Of a stretch of DNA of 64,000 nucleotides, positions 14,444 to 44,660 are shown in pieces. The notes under the pieces were generated by a model. That model made no database searches. It was not told the origin of the DNA and was given only the letters and a program-made list of their open reading frames with translations. Numbering within the stretch: the stretch's first letter is position 1; the number at the start of each line of letters is the position of its first letter. Where the stretch lies: assembly GCA_045837725.1 (NCBI GenBank), contig JBEWZL010000238.1, forward strand, positions 310,001 to 374,000, read 5' to 3'. Made by a program: the position numbers and the translations under genes. The DNA is from Vermamoeba vermiformis (lineage: Eukaryota).

Positions 14444-16714
14444 TTACAACGAGGCAATGAACTCTTCGGCTTGCTTAATGTTTAAATCAACAGGCCTCCA
14501 TTGATCATTAACCAACTCTTCCTTATAAAGTAGCGCCATGCCTAAGAACTTGACCGTCGAAACCAAACTGGATTACGGTAATCAAATTAGAACTAACACA
14601 ACGATCTGTTATCACTAAAAGAATACATACGTCATATTAAAATTGTATGTTGGCTTATTCTTCGCTGAGACTTTGTAGATCCGAGACAGAATTGAGTCTT
14701 CAGATCCGTCAGTCCTGTTTACACCCGGAAAATAAACGTAATTGATCCTATTGTTTACTGTTAGGTCTTTATGTATTTAACGTCTATATTACCTTTCTTT
14801 ATCGTTTAAGTGCACCATGACAGTTTTGCGAATTTGACCGTCGTGTGACTGAAGTTCTATAAAATCTCTTGAATCGTTGTACTGGTACCTCAATCCATTG
14901 ACCATATCACTAATGGTGCCTATCTTTGGCGACATAGTAGTACCATTTGTATTGAGCACTACAACTTTGACAGGTTGAGTATATGCCGGATCTGGCGTTT
15001 CAAAATTGACTACTTGAATGTGGTACTCCGTTGTGCATATGAATTTGCCATAGTCAACCTAATTAACATTATTATTAGGAATTTAAGACAGATCCAATTA
15101 GAAATATGATTTTTGACTTACACCAACAACGTGATTATAGCTGTCCCCGCCGTGAGCCTTTAATGACGATAATTTTTTACCGGAATTTATGTCCACAAAA
15201 TGTATCCTTGGGCCTTGATTAATGATCAAGAAATTCTTATAAACTGAAACGCTCCGAAAGTGCCGAGGGTACGCGCCACTTATAAAAGAGCCTTCTTTGA
15301 TTATATTTCCTCGAAAGTCCATAATCTTCCAATCCATGTTATTTCCATTGAATTCTACCAACGCGATCTGCACTGGATTAGATACGGATCCAGAAAAAGT
15401 GTTTAAACTGTAGCCAACTTTTAGGCTTACCTTATCATCCATCAAGTAATACTCTGTATGTATCGATATTTTACGCTCGAATAAGTCCTCTCTTGATTTG
15501 TAGTCATAAATTCGTAGAATCGGATTGTTGTAATCTACTTTGTACGCAATTAAAGCGCCGCACATTTGACTGTCGTAGCCATGTTTCACTTTATATATAG
15601 GCATATGTTCTCCAGTCTGTAATTCGATGAGAAGGGGATATGCACCATCAATTAGCATCGTTTCCCAATCGGATCTATTATTTAAGGTCCACCGAGCATA
15701 CTCCGGAATACCTTCTTTGTAGTAGTTAACATTATAAAGCATATAAATTTACATATGACTATATCGTACCTCCAGGCAAGCTTACAGTCATTAAACTGTC
15801 ATCGGATCTGCGCCAGATCTTCAAATTCTCATTACTTCCGTCCTTTAATTTGAAAATTAGACTAGCCTTATAATTGTTATATATATGTGTATATGTGTCC
15901 TTACAATCAGATATGAAGGCGTAATTAATGAGCAAAACTGGTCGATCTGTTTTTGTTCACCCGTTCTTGCATCGAATATATAAGCACTGCACTTAGTTTT
16001 TCTAGAGTAGGACCTATAATCATATTAGAAACACTCTTTTTATATTGTATTATTTACACTCTTACGTATCTCTATCTACATAAGTACTAATCAGAACGTC
16101 AGATCCAGCGAAGCTTGTTTCCGCGTAAGTTCCTGAAGGTATATCAACGACCTTCGTGGAAAATCTAATAAGATAAATTAATATATACAGTTTTTATTAA
16201 ATGAAGCAATTGCAGTACCTTCCATTGGTCATGTTCTCAAGAACAACTGCAGTCAGATCCATAGGTTCGAATGAAGCGCCATTCAAATAATCTGAAGAGG
16301 TCCAATCAGACATATGTTATAATGCAATCGACAGGGCTTATCTTACTATTTATTTTGGCTCGATCTGTCGCTTCAGGAAAAGGAAAATCGGTCGGATTTT
16401 TTGGCGGGAAACTACTGTGGTGTTGTTCATTGCCATTCTTTACTTTTTCTGGCTCGCTATTAAGTTTGTCTTTTTGTGTGCTAAATAATCGAGCAAGACT
16501 TGGCGGTGGGGAAGCCTTAATTGTTTAAACAATTAATAAAATAAGAATTTGATTTGTACATCATTAATTGAAGACATAAATACAAAATTGATTGGGATAA
16601 ATACTATTTTAAGGAGCCGAATGGGTTGGATTTGTTGAGTCATTTTTTTACCTTCGCGACGGAAGCCCTTGTGGCCACCTTGCTCAATTCAACGAGCACC
16701 TTTCTGGTAGACAT
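14444..16714 (-). CDS. Uncharacterised beta-rich (propeller-like) protein with a mitochondrial-presequence-like N-terminus
   Basis: Exon 1 MSTRKVLVELSKVATRASVAK | ASPPPSLARLFST; large exon ~15121-15718 with WD-like IHFVDINSGKKLSSLKAH; ends EEFIASL*. Confidence 0.55.
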
Positions 16715-28850: not shown

Positions 28851-31800
28851 ATGAGCGTTACGACAAAAATTAATTTGCTATCAATAATATTAGTATTAAC
28901 AACTTATATTCAGTCGTCTCACGAGGTATGTTCAGATTTGAAAAATTAGACCCTTTGAAATAATACTGTTTGACTTGACCAAATTGCCAATTTTGAAACT
29001 AGCTTAGTGTTGATTTTTTCAATGCAAAATCTATAGCGGGTTTTTGCCCGTGACCTGGATCCACAGTGACACGCGTCAGATCTAAAATTCTTATTTTCCG
29101 TAGTACGGCTTGTTTCCGCCCGTTCAACTCTCAGCCAACGACAGTTCAATAGTGTATGGCGCCAATATCGTAGATCGCAGAATATTTTGCACTACTAAGC
29201 GTAACGATTCCTTGCATCTGGACGTTTTTGAAGTTGCCGGATCTGGTTCTGGAGCATCAGTCTCGTTAGTAGAGAGTAGTGACCTTGGTTTAAATATGAC
29301 CACTGAATTGGCTGCTCTCACTAGTGCAACAGACAACATTGTAGTGGTCACCTACGGAATGTAAGCGATTTTTTTTTTGTTCAACGCGCGAATTAATTAT
29401 AATTGTTTTTAGAGCTACAAAAACGCTTATTTTGGAACGAAATAACATCGCGTATCCATGGGAGTATATAACAGACTTTAGCATTCGAGTAAGAGGAATT
29501 ACTATTCTGAACGAGTCCAGGATATTCTATTTCGGAGTGTCAAGTCAAAGTACGTGTTAATTTGCGGCCTCATACCTTAATATCTAACATTTTCTATATA
29601 TAGATCCCTCAATGGGATTTTTTGTTAAGATAAATGGAGTTTGGGCTGTGGAAGAAATCGATGCTTTCAGCATAGGGTAAGACAAGATATTAATGATTTA
29701 TAATAATACTAAGCTACTAGGATGGCGGTTATTAAAAACGGAACGATAATGGCGTCAAACACGAATGATAAGACGTTGCGGATCTACGAAGAAATCAACG
29801 GAAATTTCACGGTAGTCCAACAATTGCCCGTTCAAGATCAAGTAGCTATTGACGCTTGGGGAACACTGCTATTCATCAACAACGATGAAGTTTACCTCGT
29901 CAATAGTGTGCAAGGAGCTTTGATTTCGATGTATATGCACCGGTTCGTGCGATTAGATAACGGCACGTGGGAAGAGCAACCGACCGTTGACTCAAAATAT
30001 TTGCTGGACTCGTGGGGAGTGCTTTATAATAACATTGTTGTCGGTGTTGGGTGAGTGAGTAATATTATGTTATGAACGTATCTTATGATCCTTTCGCAGG
30101 CTTGCTGAATCGCTAATCTCCTCAGATCGCGTCATGGTTTTATTAGACGGAGCTAATTTCAATGGCACAAACGTGTTCATCGAAAAGAGTTTTGATTATT
30201 CTATAAATTTTCCGTATGATGGAGCGATAGCTTCATCGGGTGATACGTTTTTCACTGCAATAACTGCCGACAAGAGCATTCAATTCTTCGAGATCAATCC
30301 AAGTACGTAGCAAAAAGCCAAAAAGATAGTCTTCAGTGCTTGACAAATTATCACAGGTTGTCGCGATGGAGTGAAAACGGAGGACGAACAATGTGACTCA
30401 GGTTCGCACTGCGACAGCTTTTGTTTTTGTATGACCAACTTCACACGCTCGATCGACTCCGCAATCCTCGATTGTGTTCCAAGTACGGTAGTTTTGTGTT
30501 ATAGTCCCTTAAATAACCACTTGCATTGGTAGGCTGTGGCAATGGGTACTTAGATTCGAATGAAGCGTGCGACGCCTACTTCGCTGACACGTGTCGCTCA
30601 GACTGCACGTGCCAGAATGGCTACGAGTCTATAGGAAACACTACTTGCCGAGCTAGTACGTTTAATGATTAATTAATCTTGCTACAACGTCTAACAACCG
30701 TTTGTAGTTTGTGGCAATGGAGTGCTCAACGAGGGTGAATTGTGCGATCCAGGAATGGACGAAAACTGCGACAAATCGTGCTTAGCTTGCAAAACAGGGT
30801 ACACATTAAGTAGTCATGCGTGTGCAGCCAATGAAGTCCAAGGTACGGCAACCAATAATGTGCGTGCCAGTTACTTATGACTTCGATCAGCTCCGTTTGC
30901 ATCACCGAGTGCATTACCAGATTACGTAATACCTGTAGCAGTTGTTGTCCCTGTCGTGGTGGCTGCAGGGATAACAGTACTTACTATTATGTTAGTCAAG
31001 AAACGACGTCAAAGAAACCGCAGTGGTGACAACGAGCTCAAAGGTAAACGAATATCTTTTGTACGTGTATTGATTTGTTATTATAGACTCCAAATATATC
31101 TCAATGTCAACTAGCAAAAGCTCTCCAAATGTCTCGAGTAAGTAATCGTGGGCTATTTTGATCAACACAAATCAAAGTTCACTGACCTTTTATAGGCGGG
31201 TCAAAACAAAACATATCGAACAATTCTGAGAAGAGACTCGATATTCCGTACAAAGACATCACGTTGAAGAACGAGATTGGTGCAGGTGCCTTCGGCAAAG
31301 TGTTCTTGGGAGAATGGCAAAAACTTCAAGGTATGAGGTACTATTTTGCATTCAGGCACTAACCTGATGTATCAAATAGTCGCGTTAAAGCTCAGTAGTG
31401 TCGGAGACACGAAAGAATTTCGACAAGAGGCCAAGTTGATGATGTACGAACATGATTTGACATTTTGACACGTGTCATGTTTCGCTCACTTTCTTCCTTC
31501 GCAGTGATCTTCGACCACATCCCAATGTCGTGCAGGTTCTTGGACTGTGTACCGATGCACCATTCCCAATCTTGATTCTCGAATACTGTGATGGTGGAAG
31601 TCTCGAATCAGTCATCAAAAAGAACACTCTGAGTGATGAACAGATCGTTGACTATGCATTTGGAATCGCACGAGGAATGCTTCATTTGCACTTGAACAAT
31701 ATTGTTCATCGCGATCTCGCTGCACGAAACGTTCTCGTAAGTACCATTCAGCAGCCAGCAAGCCACTTAACATTTACTGATTATTTGCGCATAGCTTGAT

Positions 31801-32371
31801 GATGGAGTGCCAAAAATCTCAGTAAGGCTTCTTCTTTTTTTTAACTGGGAAGAAACTTAAAGTTTTTTACAGGACTTTGGTATGGCGAGATTCGTCGAAG
31901 AGTACAAAGAAGGCAAGACTGGAAACACTGTTGGTCCACTCAACTGGATGGCACCCGAGTCACTTCTGCATCAAACATACAGCATCAAATCGGATATGTG
32001 GAGCTTCGGCTGTCTTCGTAAGTCAATCTGTAACGCTTCTGTTGTTCGAAGTTTCTTATCCACGGACGCTTAGTGTATGAACTGATCACTCGTGGAGAGC
32101 TGTACGAGCATCTTCAACCAGTTGACGTGTACCACGGAGTGACTCGTGGCCAACTTCATCCAGATATTCCTGACAACGCACCAACAGTGCTCAAGTTGAT
32201 CATGACAAAATGCTTCGAGTTCGATCCTGACAAGCGTCCGGTAAGTATAATAAGGACCACAAACAGTTTATCCCGGACTAACGGATCTGCCTTTCGTTCA
32301 AGACTTTTGAAGAAGTGTGCAACTGGCTTCGTGAACCGTTGCAAATTCATACACAAAACCCGATAGCGTAA
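28851..32371 (+). CDS. Receptor tyrosine-kinase-like protein, copy 1
   Basis: Signal peptide, beta-rich ectodomain, three C-x-[ND]-G..E.CD repeats, TM VIPVAVVVPVVVAAG, then GAGAFG, HRDLAARN, DFG and GPLNWMAPE. Confidence 0.9.
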
Positions 32372-32576
32372 CGTTCGTTACATCAGCCTAGGTATTTTTT
32401 GACGGAATAATGGAAGTTGATTCACAAATCATCGAAACCGCCAATAGTTTGCAACGCACGTGCATATCAATGGAGTTTTGTTTTCAATCAATAAGAGCAC
32501 TAGCGATGACAAACACTTTTTAATGACGCAAGTTGCTTATTGCTGTTGTTAAAATAAGTGCAGATCAATTGCACGG

Positions 32577-35500
32577 ATGGGAGTTACTTCTTATGTTTCA
32601 TTTATATCAATTTTGCTTTTTGCATTTTATATCCAATCAACGTTTGAGGTATGTAATCATGACAATTTTCAAGTAGCGTAATCATGGATCGGAACTCTTA
32701 CGTAGATCCAATCCTAAATATTCCAAATAATTGTTATTTTTGCCGATTATATTCCAAGTAAGCGTTACAATAATAATATTTTTCTCTCAGTACTAAAAAA
32801 AATTCTGAATTTGTGTTTAATTAATATTAATTGACATGCGATGTCAGATCGTTTCACTGACACTTTTCGCAGTACGGCTTCTATCAGCCAATTCAATTCC
32901 CTTTCAACGATAGCTCAGTTACAGTGCTTGGAACAAATATAATAGACCAAAGAGTATTCTTGACGACAAAGCGCAACGGTTGGGCACATCTGGAGATTTT
33001 CGACATCGTTGGTTCAGGACCAGACACATCCCTATCGCTCATTGAAAATGTCAACCTTGGTTTAAATGTGACTGTAGAAAATATTTATTTATCAAGTGCC
33101 ACTGATGGTGTTCTCGTGCTAGGGTACTCAATTTTGTAAGTTGGATCTGCTTTTTGTATCGCGTCTAATATTGCTTAGAGCTGGAAAGACTCTTATCTAC
33201 GAAAGAAACGCAAGTAATAGTCAATGGGAGCAAGTTGCTTCGTTTGATGTCGTATCGCGAATGGTGCAGATCATCAGCGACACCAAGATCGTGTACCACA
33301 TCAGCACAAACTGGCAATTGAATGCGGGTAAATTACTACGCCAATATATCTATATTAGTACTGACACCATTAAATAGTTTACTCCATTGGTTGTTACGCG
33401 AAGCAAAACAATTCGTGGGTCACGGAGGAGATCGCTTCTTTTAGGACGAGGTAAATAATACTACGCTACATTATACAACCAAAATGATAAAAATCACGCT
33501 TAGGGGCGTATTTTATTATAATGGTACGCTGATTGCCGCAAGCTTGGACGATCTGACAGTTCGGATCTTCGAACAAGTCAATGGAAATTTCGTTCAAGTT
33601 CAACAAACGCCAGTGATCGATGCCGGCAGTTTGGATCAATGGGGAATAAAGCTGTTCTTCTTGAACAAAGACGAATTTTACTTTGGGAACGGAAACATCG
33701 GATCTGGTGTTTCAATGTACATCCATCGATTCGTGCGACTTGATAACGGCACGTGGGCAGACACACAAATAATTGAATCTCAATATCTGTTTGACTCGAC
33801 GGTTGCTGTTAGCAGCGATCTTATTGTCAGTGCTGGGTAAATATCAACGTTATTCAGACCTCGCGAAGATGAGTACTCACCGCGATTTCTTTGTTAGGAA
33901 CTTCATGTCTTTGCCAGAACAGATTATCTTCTTAATAGACACGAACACATTCGACGGCTCAAATTCATTATCATCTTTCAGTTTCATGTATTCTCAAGGC
34001 ATTCCGCTTGACGGAGCGCTTGACTCCAACGGACAAAACATTTTCACCGTGCTCAATCCCGACAAGCAACTTGTGCTCTTTGGAATCAATCCAAGTACCT
34101 TACAATCCGCCCGTAGCCCAGTAAAAACTAATCTGGCGCAGGTTGTGGAAATGAAGTGAAAGAAGAAGACGAGCAATGTGACTCAGGCGTGTACTGCTCA
34201 GTGTTTTGTGAATGCTTGTCGAACTTCACGCGATCCATCAATCCTACCATCTTAAACTGCGTCCCAAGTATGTCAAACTTACTGATATTAATGAGCTTCT
34301 AACACATTTACAAGGTTGTGGCAATGGATATCTTGATGATAACGAAGAGTGTGACGCGTACTTCGCTGACACGTGCCGAGTGGACTGCACATGTCAGAGT
34401 GGCTACGAGCCAACAGGAAATACTAGCTGTCGGCTGAGTACGTTTCATATTAGAGGCACCAATATATAGGTCGTACTAACGACCCATAGTCTGTGGCAAT
34501 GGAGTGATCAACGAGGGTGAGTCGTGTGATCCAGGAATGGATGAGAACTGCGACGCCTCATGCCTGGCTTGCAAACCTGGATTCAATTTGGTCACTAGAA
34601 CGTGTGTAGCAGACGAGCTGCAAGGTACGTAGCACACTCTGCCACATCAAAACATGCTCGTAACGACTACTTGCAGCACCTTCCGACCAACCAAGTGCCA
34701 TGTCAGCCTACGTTATACCGGTTGCAGTTGTAGTGCCCGTCGTTGTGGTGACAGGCATTACTGTGCTTATAGTAATGCTTGTCAAGAAGCGGAATGCACG
34801 AAAGAGAGATAACGAACAAGAATTTGCTCAATTTGGTAAATGTATTTATGTCACGTGCAAAAAAATTAACTCTTACGAAAGTAGATTCGAAGTATATATC
34901 CATTTCAACTGCAAACTCACCTAATAATTCAAGTAAGGCCTGCGCCTTCGAAGTTATGCAACTAATACGTTTTAGACGGCTCCAAACAAAACATATCGAA
35001 CAGCTCGGATAAGAATTTAGATATTGCTTTTAAAGACTTGATCTTGAAGAATGAAATCGGTGCAGGAGCATTCGGCAAAGTGTTCCTCGGAGAGTGGCAG
35101 AAACTTCAAGGTATGACACTTTGACACTTTGACACGGAACCTATTGTTGACACCTCATTTGCATTAGTCGCTTTAAAGTTCAGCAGTGTGGGAGATACGA
35201 ACGAGTTTAGACAGGAGGCCAAACTGATGATGTAAGGACGACATTTTTTCTTGACACATTTGACACCTGTCATGTTTGAACTAACGAGCTTCTTCATAGT
35301 AATCTCCGATCGCATCCCAATGTCGTGCAAGTTCTTGGTCTCTCTCTCGATGGTCCATTCCCAATCTTGATTCTCGAATACTGTGATGGTGGAAGTCTCG
35401 AGTCAGTCATCAAAAAGAACACTCTGAGCGATGAACAGATCATTGATTATGCATTTGGAATTGCACGAGGAATGCTTCACTTGCACTTGAACAATATTGT

Positions 35501-36197
35501 TCATCGAGATCTCGCTGCACGAAACGTTCTCGTAAGAATTCAAGCTGTAAATTGAAACTCGGATCTAACGTCATTTTTTACTAGATCTCTGACGGAGTGC
35601 CAAAAATTTCCGTACGAATTGCTTAATACAAAAATAGATCCTATCTTAATATGGGACTGTTATTAATACCTTTGCAGGACTTTGGTATGGCGCGCTTTGT
35701 CGAAGAGTACAAAGAAGGCAAGACTGGAAATACTGTTGGTCCACTCAACTGGATGGCACCTGAGTCACTTTTACATCAAACATACAGCATCAAATCAGAT
35801 ATGTGGAGCTATGGCTGCGTTCGTAAGTAACTTGGGATAGATGACTTTGAATGGACGTCACTAATTTTCGTTGTAATTTTACGTAGTCTCCGAGCTCACC
35901 AACGACCAACAATTGTACGCAAGTTTGCAGCCAATGGACGTGTACCACGGAGTGACTCGTGGTCAACTTCATCCGACAATTCCTGACAACGCACCAACAG
36001 TGCTCAAGTTGATCATGACAAAATGCTTTGAGTTCGATCCTGACAAGCGTCCGGTATGTCGATATTTATATCCTACACAAAGCTAACAACGACATGCTAA
36101 TTTGCTTTTAAAGACTTTTGAAGAAGTGTGCAACTGGCTTCGCGAGCCGTCGCAATTTCAAACGAAAAATCCCGTGGCTCAAAGCTTGACGTCGTGA
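32577..36197 (+). CDS. Receptor tyrosine-kinase-like protein, copy 2 (tandem paralogue)
   Basis: Same exon structure and motifs as copy 1; kinase exons nearly identical. Confidence 0.9.
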
Positions 36198-36376
36198 GAT
36201 TAATGTTGCAGGTGGCTTACAATAATCTGATAAATTACTAATGTTTTTATTACTATCTGATTGCAGTTCGTTGCTGCTCGTAAAAAATTACAGGGAAAGG
36301 GGCTCTTGGTTGCATGACAAAAAGCGAGTTTATTTGCAAACTACAGCATCATTGGAGCAACTAGAATAGAAGTCAC

Positions 36377-37696
36377 TTACACGGAAATATCGGCAGTAAT
36401 TGCGAAATTTCCGGTAACAGCGATGTTCGTAATTGAAATGCCAGTATCTTGGCCAGCATACGTTCTAGTGCTAGGATTGCTAGACGGGGTTAGATTTGCG
36501 TTGTTAGAAGCGCCAGGGAACGGGTCACCAGCATCACCTCTTGAACGACTAGTTTCAAGCTCTCTCTTGCCATCAGCCTGCAAAAGAGCCACCTTGTAGT
36601 GTCGCTCATCGTTGTTGTTGGGCTGGTCTTCGTCAATACGCCAAGCAAGGAGACCATGGGACGCCAGGGCCACATCGTAGCCGAGGGCTTGTCTGTTTTC
36701 AAGTAAGAAGTATTCTTTCTTATTATGCAATTTGCCGAACGAGTAGACCAAGGTACTGGTTTCCACAGGGTTGATGGTGATGGATTGACGATTGTTGATG
36801 CGAACTTCTGAAACCCATTCTTGCTTCAACTTGCACCAAGCAGACGGATGCGAAGGCTTGTCTCCTTTGCCGTTCCAAGAACCATAACCCATCAAGCACC
36901 AGCTACCAACTCCGTATGAAGAGTTATCGGTGTCGTACAGATCTGGAAAGCCGAACAACAGGTGGCCTAATTCGTGAGCGCAAACACCAATTCTTGCATC
37001 CTCGGGGACGGTAAGATAGCCATAGACTTTTTTCTTGTTCACAACTTCAGGAGTCGTAATGTTGTACTTGTGAGACCAAATGTCGTTGGAATTCCAAGTA
37101 GTTTCGCCTCCAGGGCCAGCATGAATGACGATGAAGGCATCGACGTAGCCGTTGTTGTCGTTGTCGTACTTGGCAAAGTCCACTAGACTCTTCACCAATT
37201 GAAGTGCGTTGAATGCCAGCACGGGAGCGCGAATATCTCCGACTTGCGATCCAATCGCAACACGACCAGTGCCAAAGTTGCCATTGCCGTACCAAGCATG
37301 AGTCTGCGGAAGTTCCACGGGCCCAACTACTTGTCCAGTAATGCCGACGAGACCATTAGACACTTCGCGGTAATAATGATTGACACTATCTTTAGGAGCA
37401 AAGAATAGTTTTTCAAATTCTTCCTTTGATCGTGTGAGTTTTCTGTCGGAAAAACCGGCTAAAACCACGATAACGTTCAGATCTCCTCGTAGCTTTTGGC
37501 GAACTCGTTGCTCCTTGATAGCAGAAAACGTCCAATCCAAGGGCTCCTCTTCGGGTCTGGTCGCGACTCCGTCAGCGAACCCCAAAGTCTGGGGGACATG
37601 AACTCGGGTAGTGAACGGAATCATTTGGTGCAAAGGAGTTCCGACATGAGCGTCGATGGTCGCAGGGTCTGGGGGAATAGCGCAGAAATGAGTCAT
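36377..37696 (-). CDS. Immune inhibitor A / peptidase M6 family zinc metalloprotease, intronless
   Basis: SVNHYYREVSNG, YDNDNNGYVDAFIVIHAGPG, IWSHK, HELGHLLFGFPDLYD, WCLMGYGSW, HPSAWCK, EYFLLENR, GDAGDPFPG. Confidence 0.92.
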   Translation of the reverse strand: MTHFCAIPPDPATIDAHVGTPLHQMIPFTTRVHVPQTLGFADGVATRPEEEPLDWTFSAIKEQRVRQKLRGDLNVIVVLAGFSDRKLTRSKEEFEKLFFAPKDSVNHYYREVSNGLVGITGQVVGPVELPQTHAWYGNGNFGTGRVAIGSQVGDIRAPVLAFNALQLVKSLVDFAKYDNDNNGYVDAFIVIHAGPGGETTWNSNDIWSHKYNITTPEVVNKKKVYGYLTVPEDARIGVCAHELGHLLFGFPDLYDTDNSSYGVGSWCLMGYGSWNGKGDKPSHPSAWCKLKQEWVSEVRINNRQSITINPVETSTLVYSFGKLHNKKEYFLLENRQALGYDVALASHGLLAWRIDEDQPNNNDERHYKVALLQADGKRELETSRSRGDAGDPFPGASNNANLTPSSNPSTRTYAGQDTGISITNIAVTGNFAITADISV

Positions 37697-37825
37697 GTTC
37701 TTCTGTTGAGTGTTGACAAGTAATGAATTACAGTGAAAAACAATCCATTAAATAGATGGATTTTGTCTAAATTTAGAGCAACAAATATTCCAGATGCTTC
37801 CGAAGCTAATAGATTGGCTGAATTG

Positions 37826-38048
37826 GTTTTTGGAGTTTTCCGTTTGGTCTCCGAAATTGGCAAACTGTACCAAAACTCAATTACATAAAGAATCGTCACT
37901 CATGACTACTTTGCGTTTTGGCGCTGTTTGCCAATTTCGGTCCGCAGAGCGGAAAATCTCGAAACGTCACCAGGCAGCAAAGTACTGTAGCATTGCGTTT
38001 TGGTGCCGCGTGTCAAATTTGGATCTCAGAGCGGAAAATCTCAAAACG
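37826..38048. promoter_or_regulatory. Repeated element in a divergent promoter: two direct copies and one inverted copy
   Basis: 37911-37966 and 37993-38048 both read TTGCGTTTTGG...CAGAGCGGAAAATCTCRAAACG. The inverted copy at 37826-37865 shares GTTTGCCAATTTCGG and CGGAAAA. Confidence 0.65.
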
Positions 38049-38101
38049 GCGGGAGGATTCTAGCTTTGATTGACGATTCTTTAATTCAAACATTCTACAA
38101 C

Positions 38102-38692
38102 ATGGCACAACCACGACTCGAAAAAATTTTGGAGAGTACTACAACTGATGAACAGGTTCGCGCTGTTAATATAACAGACACCCCGACTCCGACCGTTCCA
38201 AATTTCAAGAATTGGACTGTAAGACAGATTATTGGTTATTCCTTCGTCGCAGTACTAGTAGTCGCTCTTAATGCGGCAATCGGAGCCTACAGCGACCACC
38301 CAGACGTAGTCAAGCCTATGTCAATCGTTGCTGCTGGTCTTGGCTTTATTACTGCCGTATTAAGCACTGCTTTTGCCGTCAGATCAGACACTGCCGTAAA
38401 GACCGCGAAAAATGAAGTCAACGAAGCTATCAAAGGAGTCGCACTGCAACAAAACGTAGTGAACAAAATGAGTGAAGTGGCAGAGGGTTTATTCCACGAA
38501 TTGCCAGCCAACAAAAAAGACGAATTACTTGGGGTCGCCCGGGACACGGCCGGTCGTCTCCATCAACCAATTACGGTGTTTCAAGCTGACATTCATCGTG
38601 CCGCCAGTCAATCTGCCGGGGCTGAGGCCGTCGCTCCTGCAATCAATACCAAACAAGTGATCAAGTTTCTTACATTGAATCGTATTGGATAG
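38102..38692 (+). CDS. Intronless 196-aa protein with a 2-TM hairpin and helical tail (SLATT-like topology)
   Basis: ATG in good context (AACATGG); IIGYSFVAVLVVALNAAIGAY and MSIVAAGLGFITAVLSTAFAV followed by amphipathic helices. Confidence 0.75.
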   Translation: MAQPRLEKILESTTTDEQVRAVNITDTPTPTVPNFKNWTVRQIIGYSFVAVLVVALNAAIGAYSDHPDVVKPMSIVAAGLGFITAVLSTAFAVRSDTAVKTAKNEVNEAIKGVALQQNVVNKMSEVAEGLFHELPANKKDELLGVARDTAGRLHQPITVFQADIHRAASQSAGAEAVAPAINTKQVIKFLTLNRIG

Positions 38693-38985
38693 GCTCCGAA
38701 CTTGTAACGAATTTTCTAATAAAGAGTTGTTCCGCTCTGTGTTTTTTGTACGGTCAACTGGTACACGCACGAAACGTTTCGTTTACTGTTGTGGCTTAGC
38801 GATTGATTATAAACCATTAAATAGCTTTCTGATCACGATTCGTTTTGTTACAGATTTGACGCGTCAACATGTGTAATTTACAAACTTAATGCTTTTGTTT
38901 TTAGTAGGAGCGGCGTAACTCGGTACTTAATCTATGCTTATTTATACCTAATGATTGATCTAAAGCTTATTCTAGGCACAGCACG

Positions 38986-41837
38986 TTAGATCCACAAAAT
39001 GTCGGGTAGTCCGATTTGGTTTCTCGATTCCTTTGGCTTGGTCTTGGGCGTGTACGTTGGGGTTTTTTTCGGTTTGTTCATTGCATTTGTACGAGCTCTT
39101 CGTAGCTGATTGTTCGCATTTGTAGGCAGAATTACAGTAATTGCAGAATGGCCTCGCTTTGGTTGCATTACCTGGGCCGTGGATCCTGTTGGATTAATAC
39201 CATCGCCACGACCTTTGCCAGGGCCCTTCTTGTTAGCCGGGCGCTTAATATTTGCATTGTGATTACCCGTCAAACTCCCAGGCGACGATGCTGAGCGGAT
39301 AGAAGGGTCACTAGAGTCGCTTGATTTGCTTGTGTTTTTGTCACTCCCTTTGTGTTGATGTCGAATTCTATGAGTCGGAGGACCGTCCGAGCTTTGTGTG
39401 CTATTTATGGTAAGTGAGTTATTGCTATCGAACGAGGACACAAAAAGCTCGTTAGGGTCTTTTGGTACCAAAACAAGTTTTTTCCAAACTTGAGACTTGG
39501 CTACAAAATCACTCATTTCTTCTTCGACCGTCGCCTTGGAACGTGAATCTGAGGTTGAGTCGAATTAGTTGCAGCAACTAAGTAATGAGATATCAATTAA
39601 TGCGCACCTTTGAATTTTGGTGTCGCTTCTGGCACTGTCCGAACATTCTCTTGAGCTGCTGCAATGACGTAATTAGTTATTGTTCTTATACCATCAGTTG
39701 AACAATCGTACTTTTGTCATTGCTACTAGGTGCAGAGATCTTCAAATGTTCGTAAAGTTCACGACCGAGCAATTCAACGATGCCTTTCTTCTTCAGTATG
39801 ATCAGTTCGACGTTCTCGGGAATATAAGGGCACTTTTCTCCGTTAATACATCGGACATAATCATCTTTTGAATCGATAAAGCACTTCTTCAGTCGGATTT
39901 TCTCGCAGGCGTTGGCGTGAGTAATTGCAACGTAAACAAACGTCAACTTGTAAGTAATTGTTGTTGAATCATTGTCTTCATGCACGTTTTTGAAGCTCAG
40001 TTTTCGATGGCCATATCGCTAAACGAGCGAAATTAATTATATTAAATCTGCTAGGGTAAGCCTAAACGTACCTTCTCTTCCGTTGTTACAAACGGACATT
40101 TCGCCAGTTCGTCCAGTACTTCCCAAAACGATAAATCTTGCTCTCCGTGCTGCACTTGGAAACACAACAGATGGTGCACAGGATTGCTCGGGTCACTGTC
40201 ATTTCGGAGTTTAGCAAACACGTCAGGGCCGTGAGACACGTTTCTTGTGCGAACGACGTGCGTGTCGTCCATAGCACGGAGTAAGTCCGGCCAGTTTTTC
40301 GTGTGCAAGCGGGCGAGATTAAAAATCTTTCGGTTTGTGAAGTTACGTGCTCGTGTGAAGTCATATACTCCACTATTAAGGTCCATTTTGGGTCCGAGAA
40401 GCACTTGATTGACCTTGTGCTGCAAATCCGCAACAAAAGATGTCCGAAGAAATTCAAAGCGTTGGCCGTAGGTTTGTACTGCAATGCCATGATGGTTCGA
40501 AGTAGCGATGTTCTTTGCTACAATTTCTTGCATGAATTTCCATAGCTCCTCGTCTCCGCTTGGCAACGTAAATCCTTCGAGGCAGTCGAGTTGATACAAT
40601 CCTTGCAAAGAGGAAGGCATGCACAGCAATGACGTCGTATTCGCATCGTAATCTGAGACGATCGATCCATCTGTTGAATAAACTACACTAGTTCGTATCA
40701 GCCAAAAACCGCATGCAGGAGCTAAGTACTTCAACGGCACGTTTTTGATACGCCATGTCTCTTTCAGGGCATAGGATCGTACACTCCACACGTAAAGCTT
40801 ACGAAATATCTTTCGCACACGCTTATCAATCTGCCATACTTCTAACGGTGACATGTCACTGTTCTCTTTGTCAGTTTTATCAGAGTTATATGGACCATCC
40901 CTGATAAAGATTGTTATCAAGCAAGTTCGGTGAAGTGGAATAAAGATATCACGCATCATAATAATGACCGTAAATTAATAACGGTATGAATGAAAGTCGT
41001 TTTAATGGATCGGAAAAGTTGATTTGGTACTTACCGCTCTCTATCAAACCTAGTAACGCCAAGATGGACGATTTTCTTGTTCAGACCGGAGATTGCATCA
41101 CTTTTGGACAGCGAGAGTAGTGCCGAGACGTCTCCAAGTATTAAAAAGCAAAGGTTAGGGCTCTCTGCGTACGTCTTATGCACGAATGTTATATCTTCTG
41201 CCGTTGCATTCTCCACAACAACCAAATGTTTTGTTTTAACGGCCTCGAGCTCCGTTACAAGATCCGTTACGCGATCTGCGTCGCAAAATCGAATACCAAT
41301 TGAAGATGCATCAATGGCATCGTTCAGCTCGTTTTCAATGTCGGAGAGGTGCTCCGTCGTCCAATCAAATCCCCACAAGTATTGGATGTACTGCCGCGTA
41401 ATGCCTGGTTGAAAATTCAGCTTGATATTTCCTTCGTGCTGCTTGGGAGCAAACATTGTAATTATTTCGAAGTAAGCTGTTCTCGTAAGGTCTTCAATGC
41501 ACGTTTGAATCACTAGATCACTTGTTTCATCCTTTGAATCCAATATAAGACCTGTATTTGGCAATCTGAATCTAACGCTCTTATTCTTTTTGAATAGTGC
41601 AGAGATTGAACTTGTTTTATCTCGCAGATTGTTTGTTTTTAAGCAAGATCTACGGCAAGCTAGAGATTAATGTAGACTTAACAAGGCTCCGAAACAAATC
41701 GTTAAAGCGCTTTTTATGTCGACATACCTTATAGGGCGCTTTGCAGTGGTCCGACATTCAATATGTCCCTGTATAAATGAACGATTAATATTTGGCGCGA
41801 AACCCGAATCTGTTTTGCACTTTCCAAAACCAAACAT
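38986..41837 (-). CDS. Crinkler/RHS-like protein: degenerate NTPase + REase-fold domain + disordered tail (5' end uncertain)
   Basis: ORFs 41031-41564, 40051-40959, 39686-39985 and 38986-39516 link through GT-AG introns. Walker-B-like HLVVVENA; G..FE...GPDV...LLCFQVQ...E..K pattern. Confidence 0.55.
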
Positions 41838-42511
41838 CGCGTGACTTAATTGCTAATTAAATATTGATTACAGTATTAATATTCAGACGATTATTTAGTC
41901 AGCATAAAATAATTGTTTCAAATGTAACACATGCATTGATCCGAAACTCCAGGAGTACACTGTAATCAACTTACACGAACACCAATAGCATTAATGTTAT
42001 TTTGATGCAAATTCATTATCTTCTAGTTCTCGTGTTGTGCATCGTAAAAGATAATTATAACTTTTGATACTGAGCAAAAGCCTTGTTTACAACGAAACAA
42101 AAGAACCATGTTGCCACCAAATTAAATAATTAACTCGCCAAATTGTATTATTACATGAATATGCGTGTAATTTTACGAGCAACGAAGAACTGCAACCAGA
42201 TCGTCGAATCTGAAAACAAAAATTAAATTTATTAATTCTTCGGATTATTTTACGCCACCCGCAACATAAACCTTATTGCTGATATTATTATATTTACTAA
42301 TAATATTGAATTTTAATCAGATCAAAGAAATTTTGGGGGGGCTTACCTCTCACTCGCGGATCACTCAAATAAGGATTATTTAACTACAGTTCTTAGGTAT
42401 TTAATAATCTTTTGAATATTTTGGACCCTTCTGGTACCTGGTTGGACAAAGAACTAAACAATTAAATTTTTTTATTTTTTGAGACGAGCAACATAAGCCT
42501 TATGTAAAACA

Positions 42512-43151
42512 ATGGGCAACCAAGAAAGTGCAGATGCAATTGAACCACTGACAATGATTTATAAAGATGAGTACGTGATGCTCGATGAAACAGGGCTCAC
42601 GATCAACATGTATTTCTTTCCTGGAGGCTCTAAACGAATATTATACGACGATATATTGAAAGTATCTACAGATAAAGAATTAGGACTCGGAAGCTTCGAT
42701 TATAAAACCTGGGGTAAGCGATAAAAATAAATTAAAAAATTTGCCATTTTTTTCCCGCCTTGTATTTCATAATTACACTATTTTGTCACTAAATAATTTG
42801 CAATAATGGATGGAGTCAATAATAAAAATATTCATAATTGAAATAATCCATACTGCAATTATTTGGCATTATTTTTCAACCTCTGGAAATTTAGCCGCAA
42901 TTTATGCGACGGTTCGCTGTAACTAAGCGTTTATTTGAATAGGTATGGGTACTTCTAATATATGGTGGGCATTGGACAAGCGAAGGCTTCAATTTAGCAG
43001 TAACAATCCGGATTCGATCGTGATCGAGCTGAAAACGGACTGGATCCGGAAAGGCTTTGCTGCTGAAAACGTGCCCAAGGTACTAGAAATATTAAGAAGT
43101 AAAACTGAAACACCTAACACACGAGTACGACGATTTGATGGTGACTTCTAG
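42512..43151 (+). CDS. Small, possibly myristoylated protein with a PH-like beta domain (2 exons)
   Basis: MGNQES start; YFFP..KRI..DDI..KTWG | MG..IWWALDKRR; in-frame splice. Confidence 0.75.
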
Positions 43152-43582
43152 CATCACGCGAAGACATCAAAAGAAAAACACTTGTAAAAAGCCAAATAAT
43201 GTAAATATTACCTTCCTTACACAATTTAACTATTCTATTGAATCGTATTACGGTCAATTAATATAGTGAGTCGCACAGAAGCTTCCAAATGAAACACAAC
43301 GAGATCAGCTTTTGTTTCTCCCACATTCCTTAGTCTCAATTACACCACGCTTGCAACTGCTAAACACCATGAATGATGATAGCTCCTATAGGGAATTACA
43401 GAAACAAAGATCGGTACTGAGTGTGACGACAAGATCGGATCCTGTATCACAATCGTAAAGATTAAAGTGCGGCGAATACGGTTTACTTGCTGAAGGAATG
43501 GATGGTGATAGAGCTTTGAAGTTTTCGATATTTATTAGGCGTGTGTTAAATTAGGTTTGTTTTTCTCGGCGTTTCAGTATCA

Positions 43583-44660
43583 TCAAGCATCATCAATATT
43601 ATTATTATTATTATCAGCCAGCTCTTTATCGCGTTGTATTTGCATCTTTATATCCTCTTTCGTGTTGAAATTCATTTTAGGCAGCTTTGTCCACCGACTG
43701 CAATGCTTAGCCATCAGAGCGATAAATTTCTCACCCCACACAATACCGTACCGTGTACCGTTAGTACTGGATGCCATATATACACCCCATTCACGATTAG
43801 GATGGGCCACATATTCATAGTGTGTATGCTTTGCAAGCAATCCAAATTCGCACAATCGGTTATGGATGTACTTCACCCAAGGACATAATTGAGTGCATAA
43901 TTCGTTTGCAAATAGCAAATGAGGATGAAATTTCTTTTTCACTGAATCAGCTTCGAAGTCCATCAAGCGTGTCGTTGGATTTGCCAAAAACGGATCTAAT
44001 GTCAACTCCATCACGCTTGCATAGAACGCCTTAGTAATATCCCAATCTATCTGCTCAATTGCATAAGCATAACCGTAGCCATCATCGTCGTCACCGTCAG
44101 GCAAATTAAACAAGTTGTGGTTGAACTTGAATCCGTACCGAGCAGCGGCTTCAGGAATATCTTTGAAGGGATTAGGTTCTAAGTCATTGATCATTTGCCA
44201 TCCTCCAATATCAGCTGTAATATTAATCTATTAGTTCTGGTCAAACTAAAAAAATGGATCATCTAAATCCGCTTACCGTAGTCAGTGTTCCGGATGGCTG
44301 ATACCAAAGCCATGTCGTATGTATACCTTCTAATGTATGAAATTCTCCATTCACGATTATTTTGCTCGTCAGGCGGCAGAAAGTATTTAACAAATGGATT
44401 GTCTTCATAAATATCGTACGGATCGCCAAAATCGCTGTAATATTTGCTCTTCCAATATTGATCCTAATTAAATCGGTTATTAGACAGTTAATTAGTTAAT
44501 TATCAAATAAAATATCAATTTTGATCTTTACCTACTTTGTTCAAATAGCCGTGCAAGAGCTTACATGACGCCCCGATAGCTATAATAATATTTAAGGTAT
44601 CGATAGATCTTCAGAAATAATTTTACTGAAGATCTCGGCAGGAAGGTTGTCAAACCTCAT
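43583..44660 (-). CDS. F-box-like protein (F-box interrupted by a frameshift or a 47-nt intron)
   Basis: MRFDNLPAEIF...IGASCKLL...DQYWKSKY..DFG; long final exon matches ORF 43583-44194. Confidence 0.6.

Follow-up and report, generated by a model that had tools for sequence, protein, structure and literature searches.

The two divergent genes described here, which encode an M6 zinc metalloprotease (ORF1) and a small protein with two transmembrane (TM) helices (ORF2), are best explained, with a probability of about 0.65, as genes that arose separately and have a short promoter region, but no pathway, in common. They lie in a 64-kb stretch of the Vermamoeba vermiformis genome (the window), for which the initial annotation had proposed a co-regulated, possibly horizontally acquired defence or toxin module. 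The arrangement it described is confirmed, with two uninterrupted open frames diverging from ATGs 405 nt apart (Table 1); nothing shows that the M6 and two-TM proteins cooperate in defence or as a toxin.

Table 1 Features of the M6/two-TM locus and its surroundings, in window coordinates
Feature	Position	Strand	Remarks
Inverted-repeat left arm	36203..36292	+	between kinase gene and 3' end of M6 transcript
M6 (thuringilysin-like) zinc metalloprotease, ORF1	36377..37696	-	439 aa, intronless, signal-less; open frame, profiles, RNA contig
Divergent spacer, 405 nt	37697..38101	.	three related ~55-nt units; candidate bidirectional promoter
Lineage-restricted two-TM protein, ORF2	38102..38692	+	196 aa; conserved N-half with TM hairpin, fast-changing helical tail
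Crinkler/RHS-like NTPase-plus-nuclease gene	38989..41666	-	long exons, introns; Atlas lead, weak
Inverted-repeat right arm	42165..42267	-	past Crinkler/RHS-like gene

The M6 protease gene is intact, expressed, under selection and single-copy in the genome. No stop-free frame of the window is longer than the one that contains ORF1 (456 codons; the runner-up has 324), and the ORF1 product matches PF05547 (E 2e-22, 80 bits, cut-off 22) and TIGR03296 (223 bits, cut-off 110.8), bearing out its earlier assignment to M6. The HExxH site is intact: the zinc motif reads H241-E242-x-x-H245-x-x-x-G249-x-x-D252, Met269 occupies the expected Met-turn position, and H241, E242, H245, D252 and M269 are invariant in 51/51 aligned sequences. 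The C-terminal part is a beta domain, and a VEG domain reaches only E 0.17 in Pfam. The structural model has a pLDDT of 79, with residues 1–41 unplaced (pLDDT <50); of 500 Foldseek matches, the four listed at E≤0.001 are all to InhA2, and the best solved relative by fold is InhA-type (E 5e-17, TM 0.64). Codon changes between strains are 24 silent to 6 replacement (pN/pS 0.075, p 6e-11), and another assembly holds a 439-aa ortholog with nine substitutions. The GC content is 0.49, compared with about 0.40 across the window, and GC3 is 0.50 (host range 0.39–0.63). Because the site is intact and selection is purifying, ORF1 is probably proteolytically active; its substrate and location we infer.

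In a root metatranscriptome (RNA run X19), a gap-free 1373-nt contig runs over the M6 gene (36319–37690) with no intron, and a 161-nt contig (38241–38401) lies on ORF2, while the remainder of 34.5–43.5 kb yields no high-identity contigs in this run. The earlier description of an intronless pair therefore holds for ORF1 at the RNA level and for ORF2 as far as its open frame goes, with RNA over only 161 nt. In run X4, M6 is present and ORF2 absent. Runs X21 and X23, which carry the same species label, have no reads on either ORF; reads alike at 99% number just 1/54 and 0/114, and because these runs stem from a divergent organism, the lack of M6 and ORF2 reads is no evidence. Fifteen further runs with 0.21–0.36 of the words were left out of the counts.

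ORF1 is a domesticated horizontal acquisition from the bacterial signal-less M6 subfamily, probably of soil bacteria, as its single copy, intronless transcript, purifying selection and nesting among bacterial M6 proteins indicate, and the phylogeny asked for at the outset upholds the suggested transfer. All named top homologs are bacterial, with 48–56% identity over the whole length. In a quick tree, ORF1 falls within a clade of 45 rows (SH-aLRT 96) in which each of the 17 named non-protist members is bacterial, and a second, 35-row quick tree likewise places it within the bacterial clade (SH-aLRT 99). A contig scan with a single M6 protein query returned just 10 distant loci (24–30%), plasmid matches to the protein are at most 39%, and viral contigs gave one 29-residue match. 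The protease might instead have come from a fungus or from an early transfer shared among eukaryotes, with the rest of the history unchanged, and we regard this as quite unlikely. The M6 proteins of Penicillium and Talaromyces have the same Cys motif and are likewise tail-less, and an AU test does not reject a grouping of ORF1 with fungal M6 (p 0.16), but the constrained tree is 20 log units worse, ORF1 shares the segment YGNGNFG-x-GR with bacteria, and both trees put the fungal sequences in a clade of their own, apart from ORF1, so that the fungal M6 probably represent a separate transfer. Since the branch of ORF1 is long and the fungal grouping survives the AU test, the donor of the gene is not fixed. 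Bacterial contamination or misassembly, which an intronless gene with bacterial best hits and raised GC could bring to mind, is largely refuted and scarcely credible: no bacterial protein exceeds 56% identity to ORF1, near-identical copies occur in other strains and in RNA runs, the transcript contig is confined to the M6 gene, and the pair is flanked on both sides by intron-bearing eukaryotic genes, with short GT-AG introns in the flanking kinase genes.

In bacteria, the M6 gene usually heads an operon whose next genes encode a truncated ATP-grasp, a graspetide-type ATP-grasp ligase and a beta protein of ~100 aa; among the closest loci that extend 2 kb or more downstream (n=13), both ATP-grasp genes are found in 9/13 and the beta protein in 12/13. 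For the small ORFs, alignment A5 was made by removing 8/16 candidates of alignment A4 as not clearly homologous. The bacterial proteases usually end in a K/E/D-repeat tail, about half Lys/Glu/Asp, which is absent from ORF1; the eukaryotic protein ends where this tail starts. At the window locus the adjoining ATP-grasp ligase and truncated ATP-grasp are absent, the ligase profile TIGR04187 found nothing in this genome (it responded in 8/14 controls), and the beta protein was not found in the genome with one query, run without a positive control. After the transfer, only the protease would have been kept, released from its peptide-modification operon.

ORF1 starts with MTHFCAIPP, in which Cys5 lies within C-A-I-P-P-x-P and is kept in at least 90% of the 51 aligned M6 sequences, and no hydrophobic leader was found in its first 40 residues (maximum 19-residue hydropathy 0.49), in agreement with what had been noted at first sight. 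A Cys directly ahead of the PP motif is present in 20/32 signal-less versus 1/53 signal-bearing M6 representatives, and its position is that of the signal-cleavage site in secreted relatives. The N-terminal Cys and the absent signal peptide are traits of the bacterial subfamily and nothing particular to this locus. We somewhat favour a model in which the newly made protease is a latent cytosolic proenzyme, with a pro-segment of ~70 residues over the cleft and Cys5 on the catalytic zinc; cutting of the pro-segment would activate it. The chances are about even that the active protease would then be a stand-alone endopeptidase acting on prey or competitor proteins, via non-classical release or food vacuoles; the alternative role would be regulated intracellular proteolysis.

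ORF2 appears to be a member of a small, lineage-specific family that joins a conserved membrane hairpin to a variable cytosolic helical tail; a role in recognition or as an adaptor is the most likely. The hairpin seen in the initial annotation is confirmed by hydropathy peaks of 2.18 (from residue 43) and 2.15 (from residue 75), which place the TM helices at about 43–61 and 73–93; the helical tail comes from a low-confidence model (pLDDT 38 from three sequences, of a quality too low for a fold search). Strain divergence is concentrated in the tail, with 17/80 residues changed against 2/116 elsewhere (p 6e-6). A paralog on another contig (G000:C208:129551-130144) likewise has the hairpin and is neighboured by LRR, DUF4291 and NTPase genes, a P-loop NTPase gene lying about 2 kb off; frames scanned over 26 kb around it gave no peptidase hit. 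A fragment of the C-half is found at G000:C64:415725-415991. Among 1195 candidates (lengths 107–343, fused forms left out), one relative was found, a 91% strain variant, and there was none in metagenome or viral contigs. Atlas matches were all <0.9. The likeness to SLATT effectors that had been suggested did not materialise: ORF2 matches no SLATT family (E≤1) and nothing in Pfam, PADLOC, PHROG or bacteria, and neither its paralog nor the strain variant matches a SLATT profile at E≤0.1. A genome search with SLATT_fungal PF18142 carries no information, as its control did not respond.

The spacer contains one unit facing M6 (37826–37880) and two facing ORF2 (37911–37966 and 37993–38048), with a direct-repeat score of 34 (shuffles ≤17) and an inverted-repeat score of 23 (≤15) in 60 shuffles; no further copy was found in the genome. 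Because of these repeats and of both transcripts in X19, a shared promoter is plausible. On the proposed co-regulation the runs differ, X19 having both transcripts and X4 that of M6 without ORF2. Co-transcription of ORF2 from the shared spacer, if it occurs, may simply reflect the position of both genes in a rearranged patch of lineage-specific genes. The divergent layout itself is not shown to be unusual, since for roughly half of all genes the upstream neighbour would be expected to be divergent.

Our preferred reading of two genes of separate origin has evidence against it, namely spacer repeats far above chance that face both genes, X19 contigs for both genes and none for the rest of the region, and a second strain in which ORF2 is retained and the spacer is the same at least as far as 37891; the bracketing inverted repeat described below also hints that both genes moved as a unit. 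A protease–effector module assembled within the eukaryote, in which the latent M6 would cut the two-TM tail so that the freed hairpin could oligomerise to form a pore and switch on cell death or defence, is nevertheless unlikely. The divergent pair with its repeats, the occurrence of M6 and ORF2 in one RNA library and the fast-changing tail, as in recognition proteins, would suit such a switch, and since both proteins lack signal peptides, they could meet in the cytosol. Against this, M6 occurs without ORF2 in X4, ORF2 has no hit to SLATT or defence families, no relatives were found outside this lineage, the ORF2 paralog shares the hairpin and has no M6 in its vicinity, and a search of neighbourhoods in other genomes found a two-TM homolog in 0/90 prokaryotic M6 loci. 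With the paralog unlinked and a single M6 in the genome, this count also leaves unsupported the ideas that the genes arrived jointly and that the protease processes its partner.

A diverged inverted repeat brackets the M6, two-TM and Crinkler/RHS-like genes over 5.9 kb. Its ~90-nt arms consist of two collinear matches (31 nt at 87% and 39 nt at 82%) and lie in the intergenic gaps on either side of precisely this trio, with a score of 19 against ≤17 in 300 shuffles. The right arm resembles the 3' terminus of a small gene with introns; another partial arm copy, the third, is found at 42472–42503. With no Rfam match in 36000–43500, the repeat was no longer considered a snoRNA candidate. The Crinkler/RHS-like gene, which lies outside the pair first described, with splice donors read from the sequence at 41034 and 40071, has 18 related places in the genome, no Pfam hit and, among 979 candidates, no longer homolog of its Crinkler-like exon.

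We consider it improbable that this 5.9-kb block is an old mobile or conflict cassette, with the arms as decayed termini, the NTPase-nuclease as former mobiliser and the other two genes as cargo. The extent and score of the arms would agree with such an origin, CR proteins are described as associated with transposons (PMC5289972), and the ORF2 paralog, too, lies near a P-loop NTPase gene. However, the arms have each other as sole match in the genome, where a DNA search with each arm recovered itself alone and missed its partner, and is too insensitive to prove uniqueness; no convincing target-site duplication was seen (TAA at most, in one register), and neither a recognisable transposase in the block (Pfam, PHROG) nor another copy of it was found. 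Six paralogous CR-like loci with wide flanks include none with this repeat, an M6 or a two-TM gene, and in 1/10 CR-like locus pairs an unrelated inverted repeat reaches an equal score. Local duplication at inversion breakpoints fits the right-arm gene end and the third partial copy. Little probability also attaches to the block as a once-mobile eukaryotic conflict cassette that united a bacterial cysteine-switch M6, a two-TM protein born in this lineage with a hypervariable tail, and a Crinkler/RHS-type NTPase-nuclease, with M6 as trigger and the two-TM protein as pore under one bidirectional promoter, in a cell-death or self/non-self system. Fungal protease–gasdermin pairs are a known system for comparison, of which such a cassette would be the metalloprotease counterpart. 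Module or cassette, if true, would be the first case of a membrane effector gated by a metalloprotease in a free-living protist, on evidence that is thin.

Among known systems, ORF1 has the fold and HExxH...D site of the MEROPS M6 peptidases or thuringilysins (Bacillus immune inhibitor A; PF05547, TIGR03296; PDB 4YU5/4YU6), and the InhA structure is its only solved relative, by sequence (E 4e-11) and by fold. It differs from immune inhibitor A in being signal-less, in its length of 439 aa versus ~750, in its N-terminal Cys and in a zinc motif one residue longer, and from secreted InhA/PrtV-type virulence proteases in being without a Sec signal peptide and large accessory domains. The HExxHxxxGxxD spacing is reported for IgAse, with Asp as the third zinc ligand of thuringilysin (PMC12237041). 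Eukaryotic M6 proteins are already known, and ORF1 is a further member of the family: they exist in the fungi Penicillium, Talaromyces and Thozetella, the Penicillium type being likewise signal-less and tail-less, and are described in Alternaria (PMC9533452) and the moss Physcomitrium (10.1101/2022.10.21.513210); our comparison covered fungal sequences. With SLATT effectors, whose families are predicted to be pore-forming (PMC7159879), ORF2 shares a generic topology only, two adjacent TM helices and a helical tail, and unlike them it is without a profile match, bacterial relatives, or nucleotide-signalling or GTPase neighbours.

Cysteine-switch metzincin zymogens (mirolysin, myroilysin, MMPs; PMC6949598) are described with a short pro-segment and a conserved Cys before the metzincin domain; they are secreted, whereas the Cys of the M6 subfamily occurs almost exclusively in signal-less proteins and is a candidate switch. 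As a small tail-less M6, ORF1 is suited to testing such a switch in a family known structurally from a single member, a secreted Bacillus enzyme. The loci of its bacterial relatives, judged by the branch description, fit the peptidase plus ATP-grasp loci of branch 8 (Makarova et al. 2022, PMC8939145), given there as peptidases of unrelated families with a truncated ATP-grasp and an undetectable precursor. The K/E/D tail, fused to the protease, is an obvious candidate substrate where that description has no precursor, and as a side result it may matter more than the protease transfer itself. Compared with the signal-less bacterial M6 subfamily, ORF1 has the same Cys motif and lacks the tail and three partner genes, and it would be a clear example of a protist that has domesticated a single gene of a bacterial peptide-modification operon, with tail and partners dropped, in parallel to the Penicillium-type fungi.

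ORF1 and ORF2 lie in a eukaryotic assembly (43.3 Mb, 309 contigs), in a window whose genes have short GT-AG introns and include receptor-like kinases. The gene content, together with near-identical root metatranscriptome sequence, suggests that the assembly is that of a free-living protist. Frames and coordinates bear out the initial annotation's head-to-head pair of uninterrupted ORFs, which are divergent and 405 nt apart. Nearby, two tandem receptor-like kinase genes (29700-36200, plus strand) have extracellular parts rich in beta structure, and their kinase exons (31461-32363 and 35280-36200) are nearly identical. To the right of the 5.9-kb block between the inverted-repeat arms, the only gene on which reads of the divergent runs X21 and X23 fall is a small two-intron one (42514-43152, plus strand; N-terminus MGNQES, possibly myristoylated). 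Two minus-strand ORFs with long exons (43586-44460 and 15101-15748) lack a Pfam match and are lineage-specific.

Features of the pair, its surroundings and a related fragment (window positions unless a contig of the source assembly, G000, or a locus is named; L004 is the C64 locus)
Feature	Position	Strand	Remarks
ORF1 (M6 protease)	36377-37696	minus	439 aa, uninterrupted frame
ORF2 (2-TM protein)	38102-38692	plus	196 aa, uninterrupted frame
Third gene	about 41666 to 38989	minus	introns, long exons, degenerate-looking P-loop
Inverted match 1	36255-36285 with 42171-42201		87%
Inverted match 2	36203-36241 with 42229-42267		82%
Repeat arms	36203-36292 and 42165-42267		third partial copy 42472-42503
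C64 C-half fragment of ORF2	L004:1441-2297, about G000:C64 415700-416500		C-terminal half match only

Profile searches identify ORF1 as an M6 protease (PF05547, E 2e-22; TIGR03296, 223 bits), and residues H241, E242, H245, D252 and M269 are invariant in 51/51 aligned sequences. It begins MTHFCAIPP without a hydrophobic leader, confirming the signal-less start and N-terminal Cys noted earlier. Cys5 is kept in at least 90% of this alignment of 51 sequences, and 102 of the 119 top homologs listed carry a C-x-[VIL]-x-[PA] motif. Among 150 distant representatives (85 with a recognisable PP motif, 58 without, 7 non-Met starts skipped), Cys precedes the PP motif in 20/32 signal-less versus 1/53 signal-bearing proteins (p 3e-10, with kin not independent and signal peptides called by hydropathy only), so that the Cys occupies the cleavage-site position of secreted relatives.

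The M6 gene is a real, domesticated gene. Four runs were compared with the window. X19, a root metagenome RNA library, yielded one gap-free 1373-nt contig (36319-37690) with 33 differences; of the 31 listed, in 30 M6 codons, 24 are silent and 6 replacement (pN/pS 0.075, p 6e-11). X4, taken as RNA by guess only, covers M6 with two contigs that match the window exactly and has no contig on ORF2. The organism behind X21 and X23 is divergent (1/54 and 0/114 reads at 99%), and both runs are uninformative on the pair. Contamination is very unlikely to lie behind M6, and an artefact of any kind, misassembly included, is barely credible: against it stand a single copy in the assembly, the X19 and X4 contigs, GC3 of 0.50 (nine host exons span 0.39-0.63), and a 439-aa ortholog with 9 substitutions in another assembly. 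Separately, 17 runs (X4-X20) from 8 studies contain 0.21-0.39 of the words of 36000-39000, mainly from the M6 gene in the two runs examined; the transcript may be a strongly expressed one, from an organism that is either a widespread contaminant or a soil protist.

Leaving aside the strain variant, the first 119 homologs listed share 48-56% identity, and all organism-named ones are bacterial. A 91-row quick tree sets the M6 protein inside a 45-row clade (SH-aLRT 96); the 17 members of that clade that are named and not protists belong to Actinomycetota and Pseudomonadota. A 35-row tree agrees (support 99); the proposed horizontal acquisition of the protease is thus supported by both trees. Gain by a fungal route appears unlikely: an AU test does not reject joining M6 to the fungal group (p 0.16), but four named fungi fall in a separate 7-row clade of the 91-row tree. 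Because the M6 branch is also long (1.7-1.9), its origin stays short of certain. A eukaryotic M6 as such is not new, since M6 proteins are described in fungi (PMC9533452), which also occur among our homologs, and moss (10.1101/2022.10.21.513210). The literature matches listed include no publication on a protist M6, a weak negative. One eukaryotic-looking contig (L047, Ga0247765_1000420) encodes an M6 of 738 aa that has a long extension at its C-terminus, and proteins of this length group with the fungal clade.

We examined 90 prokaryotic M6 loci: the 80 best of 512 metagenomic ones, together with 10 genomic loci. Thirteen of the 26 best-scoring loci extend 2 kb or more downstream. In 9 of the 13, a RimK/graspetide-type ATP-grasp (115-138 bits with TIGR04187, which is below cut-off) accompanies a truncated ATP-grasp-like protein of ~260 aa, and 12 encode a ~100-aa beta protein; query sources match by construction (3 of the 9 and 6 of the 12). 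This operon of signal-less M6 with a K/E/D-repeat tail, both ATP-grasps and the beta protein recurs across loci L020-L046 (for example L029:4863-8804 and L021:2566-6430). Of the partners, the beta protein is the most constant and also turns up where the ligases are missing; its consensus starts MVQVVEN, and it matches no Pfam, NCBIfam or PHROG family significantly. The top homologs listed exceed 590 aa in 88/119 cases, with tails of median 52% Lys/Glu/Asp, and ORF1 ends at the alignment column where the bacterial tail begins. The assembly gave 0 TIGR04187 matches in a search that detected 8/14 controls.

ORF2 has two hydropathy-predicted TM peaks, no significant match in Pfam, NCBIfam, PADLOC or PHROGs, and a predicted structure too poor for fold comparison (pLDDT 38). 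The relatives found outside the window are a strain variant (91% identity), a complete paralog on contig C208 (35% across residues 1-90, tail unrelated) beside LRR, DUF4291 and P-loop NTPase genes, and the C64 fragment, possibly a pseudogene or insertion. That fragment lies directly downstream of the stop codon of a divergent gene like V-ATPase subunit B that has few introns, if any, and is convergent with FAM91. Strains differ at 2/116 first versus 17/80 last residues of ORF2 (p 6e-6); the hairpin is constrained and the tail either relaxed or diversifying. At 38492-38557 (residues 131-152), 10/22 residues differ between two strains, with the TM half almost unchanged.

Three units of ~55 nt lie in the spacer; one is turned towards M6 and the other two towards ORF2 (scores 34 vs <=17 and 23 vs <=15 in 60 shuffles). 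They include TTTGGCGC and GCGGAAAA, both similar to E2F sites; the window has 7 occurrences of GCGGAAAA, where 2.9 are expected. A second strain keeps ORF2 and the spacer up to at least 37891. X19 has a 161-nt contig within ORF2 and none on the spacer or 38.4-43.5 kb. Of the suggested co-regulation, a shared promoter is plausible from these units and the presence of both transcripts in X19, whereas X4 has M6 only; a shared promoter is in any case not an enzyme-substrate pair. A protease-effector module, to which the same units and transcripts would lend themselves, is rather unlikely: the expected linkage is absent from the prokaryotic M6 loci, 0/90 of which matched ORF2 or its relatives (best tblastn E 1.4; no profile match at E<=10 in the 80 metagenomic loci). 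Likewise, 60 frames with a length of 85 codons or more around its relatives (43 from 26 kb around the C208 paralog, 17 around the C64 fragment; short exons may escape) include no peptidase match, and HExxH occurs in 0/70 such frames near ORF2 relatives.

That the block is a mobile cassette is a little less probable still, and a cassette carrying a module no more so. The collinear inverted matches enclose M6, ORF2 and the third gene, their core scores 19 vs <=17 in 300 shuffles (other 7-kb tiles, n=17, 12-18), and searching the genome for a 31-letter pattern, 3 mismatches allowed, recovers these two arms only. The third gene looks Crinkler/RHS-like, presumably with a nuclease-like motif; the genome contains 18 places related to it (G000:C84:231028-231885 being the closest, at 45%), and it has Atlas matches of low recognition (first 0.96, a eukaryotic cluster; RHSP cluster 0.86). 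CR proteins are tied to transposons (PMC5289972) and occur in free-living eukaryotes (PMC12957317). Against a cassette, a target-site duplication is not clear, 0/6 paralogous loci with wide flanks have the repeat, M6 or a 2-TM gene, 1/10 locus pairs has an equal-scoring unrelated repeat, and the right arm, with a third partial copy nearby, resembles a small spliced gene's 3' end. Of the two readings of this diverged repeat, as decayed termini or as inversion breakpoints, the latter is the simpler.

We favour, at a probability of roughly 0.65, a protease that would have come from a bacterial protease/ATP-grasp operon, lost its tail and partner genes after transfer, and served alone as a latent, signal-less zinc endopeptidase; ORF2 would be an unrelated, lineage-specific membrane protein beside it that may share its promoter.

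Among known systems, the proposed SLATT-type identity of ORF2 fails for want of a profile match. InhA2 is the sole fold match of ORF1 at E<=0.001 (predicted structure, pLDDT 79), but the ORF1 zinc motif, HExxHxxxGxxD, is one residue longer, a spacing also reported for IgAse (PMC12237041). By likeness to the cysteine switch of mirolysin and myroilysin (PMC6949598), Cys5 may be read as a candidate switch, in a segment (residues 1-41) that the predicted structure omits. The bacterial M6 loci appear to fit ATP-grasp branch 8, with which they share a peptidase and a truncated ATP-grasp and for which Makarova et al. 2022 (PMC8939145) report no detectable precursor; their Lys/Glu/Asp tail, a putative ligase substrate, is a candidate for the precursor missing from such loci.
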